Source of the DNA: Tagaea sp.
GTDB lineage: Bacteria > Pseudomonadota > Alphaproteobacteria > CACIAM-22H2
Length of the DNA stretch: 64,000 bases
Assembly: GCA_965279525.1 (NCBI GenBank)
Contig: CBDIIB010000005.1
Coordinates: 1,376,001 to 1,440,000, forward strand
Reading direction: 5' to 3'
Numbering within the stretch: the stretch's first letter is position 1; the number at the start of each line of letters is the position of its first letter. Below, piece by piece: positions 18,401 to 21,124 of the stretch. The notes under the pieces were generated by a model. That model did not search any database, was not told the origin of the DNA, and worked only from the letters and a program-made list of their open reading frames with translations. The translations under genes were made by a program, and so were the position numbers.

Positions 18401-18618
18401 GCGACGGCGGCGGCGACGCGCGCGGGGTCGGGCTTCTGCTGGTCGAGGATCGCGGCAATGTCGGAGATCGTGCGCGGCGGCGGGCGGAAGCCCTGGCCCT
18501 GGAACTCGGCCGTGATCTGGCGGGCCTGCTGCAGGCTCACCGCCGGCTTGCCGTCCGGCTGGCAGCCCCACAGCAGAAAGAGCGCGAGCACGCATGCGGT
18601 GCTTCGGAATTCGTGCAT
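15424..18618 (-). CDS. TPR + CHAT-domain protease, predicted lipoprotein
   Basis: Lipobox-like LLWGC; TPR-like helices; FATHG (His), LSACNT (Cys), WPV and HPIFWAPF. Confidence 0.93.
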   Translation of the reverse strand: MHEFRSTACVLALFLLWGCQPDGKPAVSLQQARQITAEFQGQGFRPPPRTISDIAAILDQQKPDPARVAAAVAKADAEPPATLRGTDLAAFLFERGIAAEELGRVNQRVADFKRAYELASAANASPAINARYLQQWAISEQQIGNGRTAFTLHQRRVAIAPSPGARISAQSSLVGAAVQLGDIATAKVELPRMESTLTELRNAPRLPQFVLWSAETFVARSSATIAMEEGRFAEAERHLRAAISSNDRLIRDEASITRQQNQPPRAYTNLGYVIRGELARALARQGRLVEAEVETRAVLLGRLAIQGRYAPETLSSVLGLGDILLEQGRPAEAHRLGRVAFDSLEQMKVDPASGMYARALRQVARAQSQQGEWQAAAATYEDLRKRMASNPDVLRQAFDSNAHWGMVSLRGGNAEEARRVMTNVVARNVQTLGERHWDTAISRGMLGAAKGRLGDTAGALAEFDAATPILLQSSRQADDEEGGSAQRDSQLRVVFESALRALSASNRAGSAEESFRLADAIRGQGVQRALAQSSARASASDPALAEFVRQEQDTQKQVGALQGLLTNVLSAPERDDAAVRVLRTQIDSLRAARAAIRQEIERRFPDYVNLIDPRPATVEQARRSLRPGEALIATYVGMEQSFVWAVPQAGAVAFSAVPVGQKAMAATVASLRKSLDPNAATLGDIPAFDVALAGKLYADLLKPVEAGFANATSLLVVPHDVLGQLPFGVLVTEPAQLAAEREGEALFSAYRKVPFLIRKAGITQLPSVASLATLRNLPAAPANRKAFAGFGDPWFSAEQMAEAKVEAATQQVAQLTTRGLQTRGVKLVRRSAPATSTVDSAELAMLPRLPDTSDEVKGIALALNADASDVFLGAAANERNVKTMDLSNRRVVMFATHGLIPGDLNGLTQPALALSAPNVADIDGDGLLTLDEVLGLKLNADWVVLSACNTATGDGAGAEAVSGLGRAFFYAGTRALLVTNWPVETTSARVLTTDLFGRQARDPGLARAAALQQAMAALIDGPGYVDPANRQTVFAYSHPIFWAPFALVGDGGGSGARQVSQVSE

Positions 18619-18689
18619 CTGAAGTTGCTCCCCCCGGAGAATTCCGGACCCGATTGTAGCACCTTCCGGGGCTTGATTTTAGCACCGCC

Positions 18690-18824
18690 AGATGTTAGAT
18701 TAATATTCCGATCATAGGTATGTGATCGGAATAGGGTGCGCGGGTCGCATCGAAACGTCTGGAGGTTACAACCTTTCTATATCAATGGGTTAAATAGGTT
18801 ACGGTAACCTGTTGTCGCCCATTA
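18690..18824. promoter_or_regulatory. AT-rich control region upstream of the CHAT operon, with inverted repeats and an IHF consensus site
   Basis: 11-8-11 inverted repeat at 18704-18733; TATCAAtgggTTA (WATCAANNNNTTR) at 18780-18792; AGGTTAC-G-GTAACCT at 18796-18810. Confidence 0.6.
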
Positions 18825-19793
18825 TTAATGCGGCGCCCCGATCGTCGCCAGCCAGAGCGGGCCGGGGTCCACCCGGTCGAGCCGGCCGGCCAGATAGTCG
18901 GCGATCGCCCCCATGCCCGACAATCCTGCAAGCGCTTCGGCCTCGGGATTGTAATTGGTGTTGGTGTTGACGTCGTAGGTGAAGGCGTTGCCCTCGCGGT
19001 CGACGATGAACTCGATGCCCGCGATGCCGATGTCGTTGGCGGCAAGGAAGCGCTCGTAGCGCTTCACCAGCGGATGGCGGAAATTCTCGAGGATGCGGAA
19101 GCGCGCACCCGGCGCCACCGCCGGGCACACGGCCGCGGGATCGACCTGGCACTGGTCGGCCGGGCACAACTCGAAGCCCGCCGACGTGTCGACGCGCACG
19201 GCATAGAGGAACTTGCCGCCGACGAACTCGACGCGCGTGATGAACGGCTCGGGTGCCGCGACATAGCGCTGCACGAGCCACGTGCCGTCGACGGGGCCGA
19301 TGGCTTCCTCGTCGGCGAGATACTCCTTCAGCGCCGCTTCGCTCAGGATCAGCTTGACGCCGAGACCCTTGCCGGCCCGGTTGTGCTTGACGATCAGCGG
19401 ATAGCCCAGCGTTTCGGCCGCGCGCGCGATCTGCCGGCGCCCGATGGCCGCGATCGTGTCGGGCACGGCGATGTCGTGGGCGGCGAGTGCCTGGTACTGC
19501 GCGACCTTGCTGATCTCGAGGGCGAGCGCACGCCGGCCGTTGACGACCGCGCGGCCGTGCCGGCTGAGCCACTCCAGCACGTGGCCGGTGTACTCGGCCG
19601 CATAGCGGTGGTCGCGCGTATGCGAGGAAGCGCTCATGCGGTTGTAGAAGACGCCTTCGGGCGGCTCGGCCCGCAGGTCGAGAGCACCCTCGTCGAGGAA
19701 CCACTCGGCGAACGGCGTGCCGCGCTTGTCGAACGCCGCGCGCAGCGGCTCGACCCAGGCGTCGTTCTCGTGGATCACGTGGACCTTGCTCAT
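18825..19793 (-). CDS. RimK-like ATP-grasp ligase
   Basis: YPLIVKHNRAGKGLGV, LVQRYV, RVEFVGG, GIEFI and YDVNTNTNY motifs. Confidence 0.85.
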   Translation of the reverse strand: MSKVHVIHENDAWVEPLRAAFDKRGTPFAEWFLDEGALDLRAEPPEGVFYNRMSASSHTRDHRYAAEYTGHVLEWLSRHGRAVVNGRRALALEISKVAQYQALAAHDIAVPDTIAAIGRRQIARAAETLGYPLIVKHNRAGKGLGVKLILSEAALKEYLADEEAIGPVDGTWLVQRYVAAPEPFITRVEFVGGKFLYAVRVDTSAGFELCPADQCQVDPAAVCPAVAPGARFRILENFRHPLVKRYERFLAANDIGIAGIEFIVDREGNAFTYDVNTNTNYNPEAEALAGLSGMGAIADYLAGRLDRVDPGPLWLATIGAPH

Positions 19794-19969
19794 CGCGTCT
19801 GCTCCTTGAGGGTACGTGCCGCGCGCTCGGCCTGGCGCACGTCGCGGAAGCGTCTTCCGTCGAGCTTCCAGTAGGCGGTGGCGGCTGCGGCGAAGCGGTA
19901 GCCGCCGCGTTCGCCAAGGGCGAGCCCCGCGGCATCGCCGTCGATCTCGATCACATATGCGTCGTTCAT
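19790..19969 (-). CDS. Small hypothetical protein (59 aa)
   Basis: AAGGA RBS; MNDAYVIEIDGDAAGL...RFRDVRQAERAA; ATGA overlap with the ATP-grasp gene. Confidence 0.7.
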   Translation of the reverse strand: MNDAYVIEIDGDAAGLALGERGGYRFAAAATAYWKLDGRRFRDVRQAERAARTLKEQTR

Positions 19970-20055
19970 GGATGCGTCCTTTCCGTCGCCCGCATTGCGG
20001 CGGGCGTGCTGTCGTTCGGCGGTTTCGATCTGGGGGAAGTCCGGATCTGGGCGCT

Positions 20056-20091
20056 TCAACAGCGGCGGCGGTTCGCTTCGTGCGTCGGCAT
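20056..20091 (-). CDS. Putative leader peptide MPTHEANRRRC
   Basis: AAGGATGGAG RBS then ATG; 11 codons ending CGC CGC CGC TGT TGA; directly downstream of the riboswitch. Confidence 0.5.
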   Translation of the reverse strand: MPTHEANRRRC

Positions 20092-20130
20092 GTCGGTCTC
20101 CATCCTTGAGCCCACGACAACCGTCGTGGC

Positions 20131-20183
20131 GCTTTAGCGCTTTGTGACGCGGGCGCAAGCTGCTCGTTCAAATCGCCGCGGAC
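20131..20183 (-). ncRNA. SAM-II (SAM-alpha) riboswitch
   Basis: Minus strand reads CGCGGCGATTTGAACGAGCAGCTTGCGCCCGCGTCACAAAGCGCTAAAG: P1 CGCGG/CCGCG plus the conserved GATTT, TTGC and GCTAAA elements. Confidence 0.8.
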
Positions 20184-20272
20184 GGACGCATCGTCGCTTC
20201 CGTCGGGGATGAAGATGGCCGTCGCGGGATCGGCCGGCAATCGAGGAATTCTGGTGCCGGTCGTTAGAATTT

Positions 20273-21124
20273 CTAGCGGTGGCGCGGGTCGAGCGCGTCG
20301 CGCAGGCCGTCGCCCAGCAGGTTGAAGGCGAGCACGACGAGGAAGATCGCCATGCCCGGAAACACCGCCATCCACGGCGCCTGCGCGATGAAGCGCTGGG
20401 CCGTGTTCAGCATCGATCCCCAGCTTGGTGCCGGCGGCTGCTGGCCCAGGCCCAGGAACGAAAGGCTCGCCTCCGCGATGATCGCGGCCGCGATGGCGAG
20501 CGTGGCCTGCACCATGATCGGGGGCATGATGTTGGGCAGCAGGTGGCGCACCGCGATGCGCCAGCGCGGATTGCCGACCGCGCGTGCCGCCTCGACATAG
20601 TCCTCGACCGAGGCGTTGAGCGTGGCCCCGCGCGTGAGCCGGATGAAAGCGGGCGTGGCCGAGATGCCGATGGCGATCATCGCGTTCGACAGGCTGGGCC
20701 CGAGGAACGCCGCGAGTGCGATCGCCAGGATCAGGAAGGGGCAGGCGAGCATCGCGTCAGTCACGCGGCTGATGATCATGTCGACCCAGCCGCCGACATA
20801 GCCCGCGAGCAGCCCGAGCGGCAGCCCCACGGCGATCGAGATCGACACCGACACCACGCCCGCCAGAAGCGAGGCACGCGCGCCGAACGCGATGCGCGAG
20901 GCAAGATCGCGGCCGTTCTCGTCGGTGCCGAACCAGTGCAGTGCCCCCGGCGGCTTGCGGATCGCGCCCCAATCCGTGGCGATGGGATCGAACGGCGCGA
21001 CGAACGGTGCGAACACCGCGATCGCGACGAACGCGAGCACGACCGCAAGGCCGAACACCGCGGCCGGCCGGCGCATCAGGCGGCGGACTGCCCGCCGTCC
21101 GGGGCTGTCGTTCGAATCGCTCAT
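20273..21124 (-). CDS. Peptide/nickel ABC transporter permease (DppC/OppC-like)
   Basis: HWFGTDENGRD, YVEAARAVG, HLLPN and LSFLGLG motifs. Confidence 0.92.
   Translation of the reverse strand: MSDSNDSPGRRAVRRLMRRPAAVFGLAVVLAFVAIAVFAPFVAPFDPIATDWGAIRKPPGALHWFGTDENGRDLASRIAFGARASLLAGVVSVSISIAVGLPLGLLAGYVGGWVDMIISRVTDAMLACPFLILAIALAAFLGPSLSNAMIAIGISATPAFIRLTRGATLNASVEDYVEAARAVGNPRWRIAVRHLLPNIMPPIMVQATLAIAAAIIAEASLSFLGLGQQPPAPSWGSMLNTAQRFIAQAPWMAVFPGMAIFLVVLAFNLLGDGLRDALDPRHR

Follow-up and report, generated by a model that had tools for sequence, protein, structure and literature searches.

A SAM-II-type aptamer ahead of a cysteine-ending leader ORF in Tagaea sp. and other Alphaproteobacteria: a candidate two-input sulfur leader

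Can a single mRNA leader respond both to S-adenosylmethionine (SAM) and to the supply of cysteine? The question is raised by a 300-nt gap on the minus strand of a 64,000-nt stretch of DNA from Tagaea sp. (assembly GCA_965279525.1, contig CBDIIB010000005.1, positions 1,376,001 to 1,440,000). This whole stretch is called the window here, and its own coordinates are used throughout. The gap lies between a DppC/GsiD-like ATP-binding cassette (ABC) permease gene (21124-20273) and the next genes, and it holds the leader in question. An initial annotation, made by a model from the sequence, had described it as a tandem sulfur sensor in which a SAM-II riboswitch gates a short open reading frame (ORF) ending Arg-Arg-Arg-Cys, and had proposed that SAM and Cys-tRNA are read together through ribosome-coupled refolding. 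All of the elements that it listed are present on the minus strand at the places it gave. The comparison with relatives, taken together with the gene context, leaves the core of this proposal, a tandem sensor of SAM and cysteine, well supported at the level of sequence, and a leader sensing both SAM and Cys-tRNA is the best reading of the locus. We consider it probable that a SAM-II-type aptamer is coupled here to a Cys-sensing leader ORF; the gate logic and the ribosome-coupled refolding are what we infer beyond that. The arrangement is best filed as a combination of two known kinds of device, apparently undescribed. The elements of the leader and of the unit behind it are given below, from 5' to 3' on the minus strand.

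20189-20114, minus strand: aptamer of SAM-II (SAM_alpha) type, RF00521, 36.5 bits
20180-20176 with 20152-20148, minus strand: aptamer stem P1, 5 pairs
20174-20168, minus strand: aptamer segment L1, GATTTGA
20165-20155, minus strand: aptamer loop, GAGCAGCTTGC
20138-20132, minus strand: aptamer tail, GCTAAAG
20129-20112, minus strand: hairpin P3, CCACGAC GGTT GTCGTGG (arms 20129-20123 and 20118-20112), inserted in the 3' tail of the aptamer
20111-20108, minus strand: GCTC, candidate 3' strand of P2a; its partner is the loop GAGC at 20165-20162, and its placement follows the Rfam consensus
20107-20098, minus strand: Shine-Dalgarno (SD) sequence of the leader ORF (SD1), AAGGATGGAG, with GGAG at 20101-20098
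20091 (ATG) to 20056 (TGA), minus strand: leader ORF MPTHEANRRRC*; its Cys codon, TGT, is at 20061-20059 and its stop codon, TGA, at 20058-20056
20063-20057, minus strand: 5' arm of stem A, GCTGTTG, which contains the Cys codon
20054-20049, minus strand: candidate anti-SD2 segment GCGCCC, immediately 3' of the leader stop; partner GGACGC at 19979-19974, 5 of 6 pairs in the window
20014-20008, minus strand: 3' arm of stem A, CGACAGC, 7 pairs with GCTGTTG, one of them G-U
20006-19987, minus strand: hairpin B, CGCCCGC CGCAAT GCGGGCG (arms 20006-20000 and 19993-19987), 2 nt 5' of SD2
19984-19977, minus strand: SD sequence of the small protein gene (SD2), GGAAAGGA
19969-19967, minus strand: ATG of the small protein gene (ATG2)
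19969-19790, minus strand: small protein gene (P0001), 59 aa, unnamed family
19793-18825, minus strand: gene for an ATP-grasp ligase of RimK/LysX/Ddl-like type (P0002), 322 aa; the small gene's stop and this gene's start overlap in ATGA

The aptamer and its inserted hairpin

The covariance model of Rfam SAM_alpha (RF00521) matches the window over its full length (1-79) with 36.5 bits and an E of 1.3e-4, barely over the gathering score (GA) of 36, in agreement with the SAM-II aptamer of the initial annotation. The ATP-grasp gene is present in 18 of the 60 relatives searched, and at these 18 orthologue loci RF00521 reached an E below 0.1 in seven, of which three attained the GA (40.1, 37.1 and 36.8 bits) and four scored 27-32 bits. 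The search was then widened by a scan of one genome per species with the aptamer-loop word GATTTGANNGAGCAGCTTGC, from which 80 loci of at least 117 were taken. About one third of the loci with this word were chance matches in other phyla that lack GCTAAAG, and the remaining ones were of two types. In type A the order is GCTAAAGCGCC-hairpin-GGGCTC(C), SD and short ORF, as in the window; in type B a different hairpin is followed directly by a binding-protein gene.

Across 43 aligned leaders there is no variation in GATTTGA, GAGCAGCTTGC or GCTAAAG. Since the loci had been retrieved by a pattern that fixed GATTTGA..GAGCAGCTTGC, only the invariance of GCTAAAG is an independent observation. The outer pair of P1 is C:G in 41 leaders, T:A in four and T:G in one (46 of 48 leaders could be parsed for P1), a compensatory change, and its inner four pairs do not vary. 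P3, the CCACGAC/GTCGTGG hairpin noted initially, is the mark of this variant: among 48 unique leaders each of its seven pairs is retained in 47-48, and pairs 4, 6 and 7 have changed on both strands in a compensatory manner, pair 7 being C:G in 28 leaders and A:T in 19. The four P2a pairs of GAGC with GCTC never vary and are extended by a fifth pair in 23 of 48 leaders (G:C in 20, C:G in three). As the RF00521 model itself carries no pseudoknot pairs, the placement of P3 in type A as an insertion between P2b and P2a, with GAGC and GCTC as candidate pseudoknot strands, is a lead drawn from these alignments. The low RF00521 scores of the type-A leaders are attributed to the inserted hairpin. The window copy is thus a borderline member of RF00521, and the class would be a variant that routine annotation misses. 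We infer from the conserved core that SAM would be its ligand.

When compared with SAM_alpha as described by Corbino et al. (2005, PMC1273637; the accessible part of that paper), the window leader has in common P1, L1 GAUUUGA, GCUUGC, GCUAAAG, a tail of candidate pseudoknot type, an alphaproteobacterial host and a methionine/sulfur context. It differs as follows: a 7-bp hairpin is carried in the 3' tail, the candidate P2a is GAGC/GCUC instead of the consensus CCGGCC/GGCCGG, an intrinsic terminator is lacking, as is an SD within the pseudoknot, and the first ORF under control is the Cys-ending leader ORF. One other SAM-II is found in the genome of the window. It is canonical, scores 68.7 bits, has a terminator made of a hairpin and a U run, and stands before a metZ-like gene; for this copy the initial remark that SAM-II usually sits directly before Met/SAM genes is true. 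The type-B leaders, with a tail of the form GCTAAAGCGCGGGGCC... followed by a hairpin, have no leader ORF (L042, L047, L049, L051, L058, L059, L063, L064, L105 and L109); they lead straight into a periplasmic binding-protein gene (..EIRIDWATYNPVS..), and their target is probably a transporter of the sulfonate or nitrate/taurine family.

The strand next to SD1 also bears on the sign of the switch. According to the canonical off logic of SAM-II, binding of SAM would close the pseudoknot and reduce initiation on the leader ORF. The GCTC strand is anti-SD-like in relatives (GCTCC), and a reading of the opposite sign can be built on it: GCTC(C) would be an anti-SD1 in the free state and would be captured by the pseudoknot when SAM binds, which would turn the leader on, and completed translation would then repress the next gene unless a ribosome stalled at Cys, giving an OR gate that answers to low SAM or low Cys. 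The loop GGAGC and GGAG of SD1 are both complements of GCTCC, the GCTCG variants accompany CGAG in the loop and in SD1 (L023, L025 and L034), and an OR gate would suit genes of methionine and cysteine uptake physiologically. The predicted free-state pairing between SD1 and the strand has a mean probability of 0.28 and exceeds 0.7 in 6 of 45 leaders. However, the strand in the window and its genus is GCTCA, for which the predicted pairing with SD1 is 0.00, and no structure was found that would make completed translation repressive. A further leader, L107 from a Bosea metagenome-assembled genome, lacks P3 and GCTCC and has GGAG directly after GCTAAAGC, the SD position of a canonical SAM-II, where the logic is off; it retains a Cys leader ORF (..MMFCCRR*) and is a naturally deleted form or else an artefact of assembly. 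We regard the opposite sign as quite improbable and keep the off logic for the tandem sensor of SAM and cysteine.

Cysteine-ending leader ORFs and the genes behind them

The genome set, which includes the orthologue loci, comprises 53 parsed type-A leaders, 47 of them with an ORF of 5-60 codons (45 unique); those dropped were L030 (a fusion), L057, L072, L083 and L096 (a long or open frame), L110 (MR* by the start rule) and L051 (no start). An SD-like motif lies 4-16 nt 5' of the ATG in the related leaders. Cys is found among the last 8 residues in 44 of the 45 unique short ORFs, with CC in 25, and accounts for 26% of these residues, and in all 44 the last Cys lies 0-5 codons from the stop. 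The enrichment follows the reading frame, with 113 TGY (TGT or TGC) codons in frame versus 45 and 26 in the other two frames. The choice of codon also differs from that of the surrounding genes: TGT is used 69 times and TGC 44 times in the leader ORFs, whereas the seven window genes contain 34 TGC and one TGT, so that TGT is rare there. Examples are ...SMMCCCRR* in Bosea, ...PRCCCCCRA* in Vineibacter terrae, ...KMCCGCCCC* in Labrys okinawensis, ...RCCCCPCALG* in Rhodopseudomonas and MTRLLC* in Kaistia. Metagenome contigs were also scanned, with an independent pattern that drew on nothing but the tail and P3; 76 of the 80 loci obtained were parsable. Among their 67 short ORFs 55 are unique and new, and 47 of the 55 have Cys among the last 8 residues (TGY codons 111 in frame versus 54 and 23). 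The pattern extends over several orders and several downstream operons.

Close relatives give the same picture. Six loci of the same genus share the leader, with the ORFs MPDPQTHFRRCRRA, MPDTKTHRRRCRSA, MPTARTHFRSCRSA, MPRNRMHPSCRRA, MPHQRMHPSCRRA and MPTKRMHPCCRRA. In all 7 genus leaders that keep the ORF, the SD is retained, and the ORF begins ATG-CCG and ends in C(R)(R/S)A* or C*; the conservation of a Cys-containing ORF, which the initial annotation had named as a check, is therefore observed, together with poly-Cys ends in other genera (CCSR*, SCCC*, CCCRR* and CCCCCRA*). The Arg-Arg-Arg-Cys ending that it emphasised is present in the window but does not extend to the relatives, which end C-R-R/S-A*: the window ORF is three codons shorter through a CGA to TGA change right after the Cys codon. 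In the closest relative (L004/L030, ATP-grasp protein 96% identical) about 117 nt are missing and the leader ATG-CCG-ACG is fused in frame to the small gene (MPTNDAYVIEID...), so the leader ATG serves as a start in this genome. An environmental contig from an RNA library has the same 116-nt skip, from 19968 to 20085; the RNA-library contigs overlap parts of the leader and were not counted as proof of transcription. Two species (L005 and L006) have neither the leader nor the small gene. The ORFs of other genera are longer and richer in Cys, such as ...RKSCRRSCCC* (L026) and ...GRCCSR* (L023 and L024), and the leader ORFs before metN end ...GCCSA* and ...CSADRCRG*.

A homologue of the small protein P0001 lies behind the leader ORF in 40 of the 53 genome loci as found by a motif search, and two more (L072, where the riboswitch leads directly into the small gene, and L097) were added by eye. 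The genes behind it were named by eye from conserved N-terminal sequences, not by a family scan. In the window genus and in L026 the small gene is followed by the ATP-grasp gene. In other genera this leader and the small gene together stand ahead of metNIQ, with metN next in Bosea, Tistlia and others, or are followed by a metY-like gene (L023, L024 and Vineibacter), metQ-like genes (Rhodopseudomonas), a cysK-like gene (L065), sulfate-binding protein genes (L035 and L094) or the gene of a sulfonate-type binding protein (L091); in genus g2 (L023 and L024) the order is leader, small gene, metY-like and ATP-grasp. The leader thus heads operons of sulfur, cysteine and methionine metabolism, which is the context expected of a joined sensor of Cys and SAM. 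The aptamer, the Cys-ending ORFs and the position before sulfur and methionine genes are together as a combined SAM and Cys-tRNA sensor predicts.

The members of the small protein family are 60-100 aa long and are described as hypothetical in the sources. A profile built from alignment A1 recovered 1394 cluster representatives at E<=1e-3 and 701 at E<=1e-10, and a search of Pfam and NCBIfam gave no family match. An AlphaFold2 (AF2) model of the protein (pLDDT, the predicted local confidence score, 93.6) has three strands and two helices, and no fold in the PDB matched it at E<=0.001. The ATP-grasp protein P0002 has a weak RimK/LysX/Ddl-like match, and some sources call it alpha-L-glutamate ligase or glutathione synthase-like. 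The ATP-grasp orthologues of more distant genera (L016-L021) have no riboswitch. Their upstream regions are AT-rich and partly palindromic (e.g. TTGACAA..ATAATATTATATA) despite GC-rich genomes; these regions resemble a promoter with a repressor operator and may, judging by their sequence, be under another methionine/sulfur regulator.

One sub-group of leader peptides keeps the longer motif FSCRRxSAATGAC, which hints at a constraint beyond the Cys codons, either on the nascent peptide or on GCCTGC-like words that would pair with the GGCAGGAG start region. A peptide-like motif of this kind is what would be expected if the leader ORF encoded a functional Cys-rich micropeptide, for example one binding metal or acting in redox chemistry, and not a sensor. 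The lengths of the ORFs, however, range from 6 to 50 residues, only the terminal Cys and Arg are common to the groups, and the window peptide has 11 residues with one Cys. We consider a micropeptide very improbable indeed. For the Cys-sensing ORF, the location of the Cys codons at the 3' end implies that the dwell time of the ribosome there would report charged tRNA-Cys.

Links between the leader ORF and the small protein gene

If both sensors work, they would form a composite mRNA leader with two sensors in series. The first would be the SAM-II variant aptamer, with P3 in its 3' tail and GCTC as the candidate last pseudoknot strand a few bases 5' of SD1. The second would be the leader ORF starting from SD1 and its ATG, whose last codons are Cys (one in the window, one to five in relatives, mostly the rare UGU). 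A ribosome at the end of this ORF, with the Cys codon in its A site, would cover both the arm of stem A in which this codon lies and GCGCC(U/C), which is otherwise paired with SD2, and the translation initiation region of the small gene would be freed; a stall at Cys would prolong the open state. The output would therefore peak when both SAM and Cys are low, and the regulated unit in the window would comprise the 59-aa protein of the unnamed family and the ATP-grasp ligase. What the sequences show is the anatomy of the leader, its conservation, the in-frame excess of Cys codons and the genes that lie behind it. We put forward this specific chain of translational output as a tentative proposal that is possible rather than probable; the sign of each step, like the relay of the output, is put in the conditional for that reason.

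Pairing in the genus leaders is consistent with such a relay. The GCTGTTG and CGACAGC segments can pair as the initial annotation had stated, and six of the seven genus leaders retain the 7-bp helix of stem A, the one compensatory change being that of L012 (GTTGTCG/CGACAAC). RNAalifold, applied to the seven genus leaders, joined SD2 and ATG2 (AGGUGC..CGAU) to the last part of the leader ORF together with its stop (GUCG..GCGCCU). This pairing was present in 93% of cells compared with 26-49% in slid controls, and the helix of the GCGCCC anti-SD2 segment in 97.6% of cells. A double change, U:A to C:G, was seen once, and it is the window sequence that carries it, together with a change of G:U to G:C. 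Because most of the pairs are invariant and the structure was derived from the same sequences, we take the pairing of the leader end with SD2 as weak support. Hairpin B, CGCCCGC/GCGGGCG, stands before the next ribosome-binding site as described initially; a GC-rich hairpin occupies its position across the genus, two of its pairs showing double changes, and also in leaders of Bosea and of the Xanthobacteraceae type. RNAalifold found nothing beyond hairpin B and local helices in the Bosea and Xanthobacteraceae-type groups, and pairing of the Cys tract with the spacer gave a mean z of -0.48, with 3 of 37 leaders outside the genus at p<=0.05.

Two other pairings involving the 5' part of the leader were set aside. 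The elements concerned are the following.

20204-20181, minus strand: hairpin P0 (GACGGAAGC / GCGTCCGTC), 8 of 9 pairs, directly 5' of the aptamer
20192-20184, minus strand: 9-mer GATGCGTCC, part of the 3' arm of P0
19979-19971, minus strand: GGACGCATC, 3' partner of the 9-nt long-range complement, which adjoins or overlaps SD2 of the small gene

The initial annotation had singled out the long-range complement between the last two. GATGCGTCC is indeed 100% complementary to GGACGCATC, but the match is genome-specific and absent from relatives, which differ at both sites. The 9-mer is also not rare, having 5 matches in the window where 2.0 are expected, and 4 of 100 shuffles reach 5. The long-range pairing was accordingly rejected as a conserved part of a gate. 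The pairing of the 5' strand of P1 with the Arg codons, which appears in the minimum free energy structure, was rejected as genome-specific. At the position of P0 the relatives have, as read by eye, a hairpin of different sequence.

A number of observations weigh against the tandem sensor and its proposed output. As for the aptamer, the window scores at the cut-off of RF00521, and none of 20 type-A leaders of other genera reaches the GA, only 4 of 20 having E<=0.01 (about 30 bits); membership of the leader class in RF00521, and with it the ligand, is not secure. SD1 lies outside the pseudoknot, 6-14 nt beyond it, and is unpaired with a probability of 0.39 in the free state versus 0.47 with the pseudoknot bases blocked (n=45), which gives no clear direction of a SAM effect. 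As for the output, the duplex of the leader end with SD2 beats shuffles (p<=0.05) in only 7 of 39 leaders, with a mean z of -0.72. Masking the footprint of a ribosome on the Cys codons raises the access of SD2 only from 0.37 to 0.41 (37 leaders), no better than a mask on the 5' part of the ORF, and leaves the access of SD2 in the window unchanged at 0.53. As for the ORF, a terminal Cys is lacking in 8 of the 55 from metagenomes and in 1 of the 45 from genomes (the eight include 9-residue ORFs ending RRD*, RRE* and RRK* and a Cys-free group of 52-53 residues), and a rule-based search found no SD with ATG within 70 nt in 7 of 76 metagenome loci. The window ORF has a single Cys, its last codon, and the Cys counts overstate the number of events because kin sequences are not independent. 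Finally, the words TGTTGTCG and GCTGTCG recur with CGACA(G)C partners, so part of the Cys signal could lie at the level of the RNA. Nevertheless, the aptamer, P3 and the Cys-ending ORF are conserved, as far as can be judged from sequence, in orthologue loci and in many Alphaproteobacteria, far beyond chance.

The recurrent words lead to a reading in which no cysteine is sensed. SAM would control translation of the leader ORF, which would be coupled to the next gene or protect the mRNA, and the Cys codons would be a by-product of UGUCG/CGACA pairing. TGTTGTCG and GCTGTCG do occur with partners CGACAGC or CGACAAC, one compensatory change included, the single Cys of the window ORF suits such an explanation, and the SD of the metA riboswitch of S. 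meliloti acts on a start 74 nt away with no amino-acid sensing in the part of the report available (PMC9373788). On the other hand, runs of Cys are encoded by both codons and stand in sequences that are unrelated to one another (CCGCCCC, CCCCPC, GACC...), their frame and distance to the stop are kept, and the downstream genes are those of cysteine and sulfur metabolism; the partner segments exceed shuffles at p<=0.05 in only the 3 of 37 leaders outside the genus mentioned above. A by-product of pairing is in our view improbable, and we retain Cys sensing by the leader ORF.

How a Cys-sensing ORF would pass on its signal is a separate matter. No intrinsic terminator was found by a simple scan of 18500-20400, hairpin B leading into an SD and not into a U run, and a classical transcription attenuator of the trp type is excluded for this reason, which leaves a translational or a Rho-dependent form. 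In the tnaC leader the distance from the critical codon to the stop has the geometry seen between Cys and stop in these leader ORFs. A transcriptional, tna-like output with the same two sensors would have Rho load on the C-rich untranslated spacer and terminate, unless a ribosome held at the terminal Cys or stop blocked it. The spacer between the leader ORF and the 3' arm of stem A is C-rich in the window, and from the leader stop to hairpin B the C/G ratio is 1.56 over 35 leaders (at least 1.5 in 22, below 1 in one; 2.0 in the window), higher than in the ORFs (1.27) and in the first 150 nt of the next gene (1.16). The Cys codons, 0-5 codons from the stop, are placed as this output needs, and it is favoured by the lack of an intrinsic terminator and by the small effect of masking SD2 at equilibrium. 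Yet the spacers are short (24-63 nt without hairpin B), their C excess is moderate, and a Rho-dependent output leaves the pairing of the leader end with SD2 in the genus unexplained. It is a serious rival that we judge unlikely, though it deserves more weight than the readings that deny the sensor or invert its sign. The translational relay described above, with SAM turning the leader off and a Cys stall turning the output on, is the chain that we take to be the most likely.

Known leaders, neighbouring genes and meaning

In full-text searches no paper turned up in which a SAM-II is combined with a Cys leader ORF; supplementary tables and subscription journals were outside their coverage. It is usual to treat riboswitches and leader-peptide attenuators as two distinct kinds of device, and natural combinations are rare, with mgtA as the textbook case. 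The mgtA leader of Salmonella holds a Mg2+ riboswitch and a proline-codon ORF, mgtL, within the riboswitch leader, and its output is Rho-dependent. It resembles the window leader in having a ligand-sensing RNA and a short ORF that reports an amino acid within one leader, and is the nearest known two-input design, but the ligand, the amino acid and the host are different.

Reports on the separate parts, each limited here to the portion of its text available, do not describe the combination. Corbino et al. mention terminators after SAM-II, and a leader peptide only for ilvB (PMC1273637). The SAM_alpha regulon of Leyn et al. (2014, PMC4239095) comprises metY, metA, metX and hom, with 'leader peptide' having no occurrence. 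According to Scheuer et al. (2022, PMC9373788) the SD of a SAM-II acts on an AUG 74 nt away, without Cys. Their S. meliloti metA leader is similar to ours in that an SD adjoins the aptamer, the first AUG is not the start of the enzyme and the regulated start lies tens of nt further 3', but its AUG1 and AUG2 are in frame with a Rho-independent terminator between them, AUG1 is unused in its context, and the text describes neither Cys codons nor the sensing of an amino acid, 'cysteine' and 'uORF' being without occurrence. Neither 'cysteine' nor 'SAM-II' occurs in Narunsky et al. (2024, PMC11109978), and a paper on upstream ribosome-binding sites (uRBS, PMC13285730) mentions the metA case alone.

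Leaders that sense cysteine are known without an aptamer. Ribosomes stalled on poly-Cys short ORFs (sORFs) of mycobacteria are reported to free a sequestered ribosome-binding site (Canestrari et al., 10.1101/834739), a precedent for the relay proposed above. These sORFs are similar in that short ORFs with a run of Cys codons precede cysteine and sulfur genes and a stall is proposed to block a structure that sequesters the binding site, and different in being leaderless, free of a riboswitch and actinobacterial (10.1101/834739, in its available part). Membership of the window ORF in this group of leaderless attenuators was rejected: it lies about 100 nt into a leader, behind an aptamer and with an SD, and the two are alike in working at most. 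The uORFC-8-2 before cysS in Rhodobacterales (Brewer 2021, PMC8632094) is an alphaproteobacterial upstream ORF (uORF) with tandem Cys codons in a stem, read as tRNA-Cys attenuation, but it has an intrinsic terminator with a U run, belongs to cysS only and has no riboswitch in the text available.

The region around the leader contains several further genes. A Dpp/Opp-type ABC transporter lies upstream (26307-20273, minus strand) with SBP_bac_5, two permeases and an oligo_HPY ATPase, and the best match of the permease is the glutathione importer GsiD, below its cut-off. This transporter may bring a peptide or glutathione source of sulfur beside the sulfur-regulated unit. The downstream neighbours (18618-13918, minus strand) are a 1064-aa protein with TPR and CHAT domains and a 472-aa caspase-like (Peptidase_C14) protein that also gives an EACC1-associated-type match; together they look like a CHAT/caspase module of the kind tied to defence or programmed death. 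At 32463-32377 on the minus strand there is a tRNA gene (61.3 bits) whose variable arm is long. No sigma-70-like promoter was found by the simple scan of 18500-20400.

On balance we lean, by a modest degree, towards a widespread and undescribed alphaproteobacterial leader class, in which a hairpin-bearing SAM-II variant, for the most part below the Rfam cut-off, and a Cys leader peptide would form a two-input gate on SAM and charged tRNA-Cys and would control operons of sulfur assimilation, cysteine and methionine that are headed by the unnamed small-protein family, itself maybe a new player in sulfur homeostasis. If this is true, a sizeable share of SAM-II-like aptamers would be unannotated, with the inserted hairpin lowering their score. 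The small-protein family, with at least about 1400 clusters and no match by name or fold, would be what many Alphaproteobacteria of soil and water make first from their sulfur-regulated operons, and these bacteria would carry out, on a single mRNA, a compact computation on two sulfur signals, SAM and cysteine.

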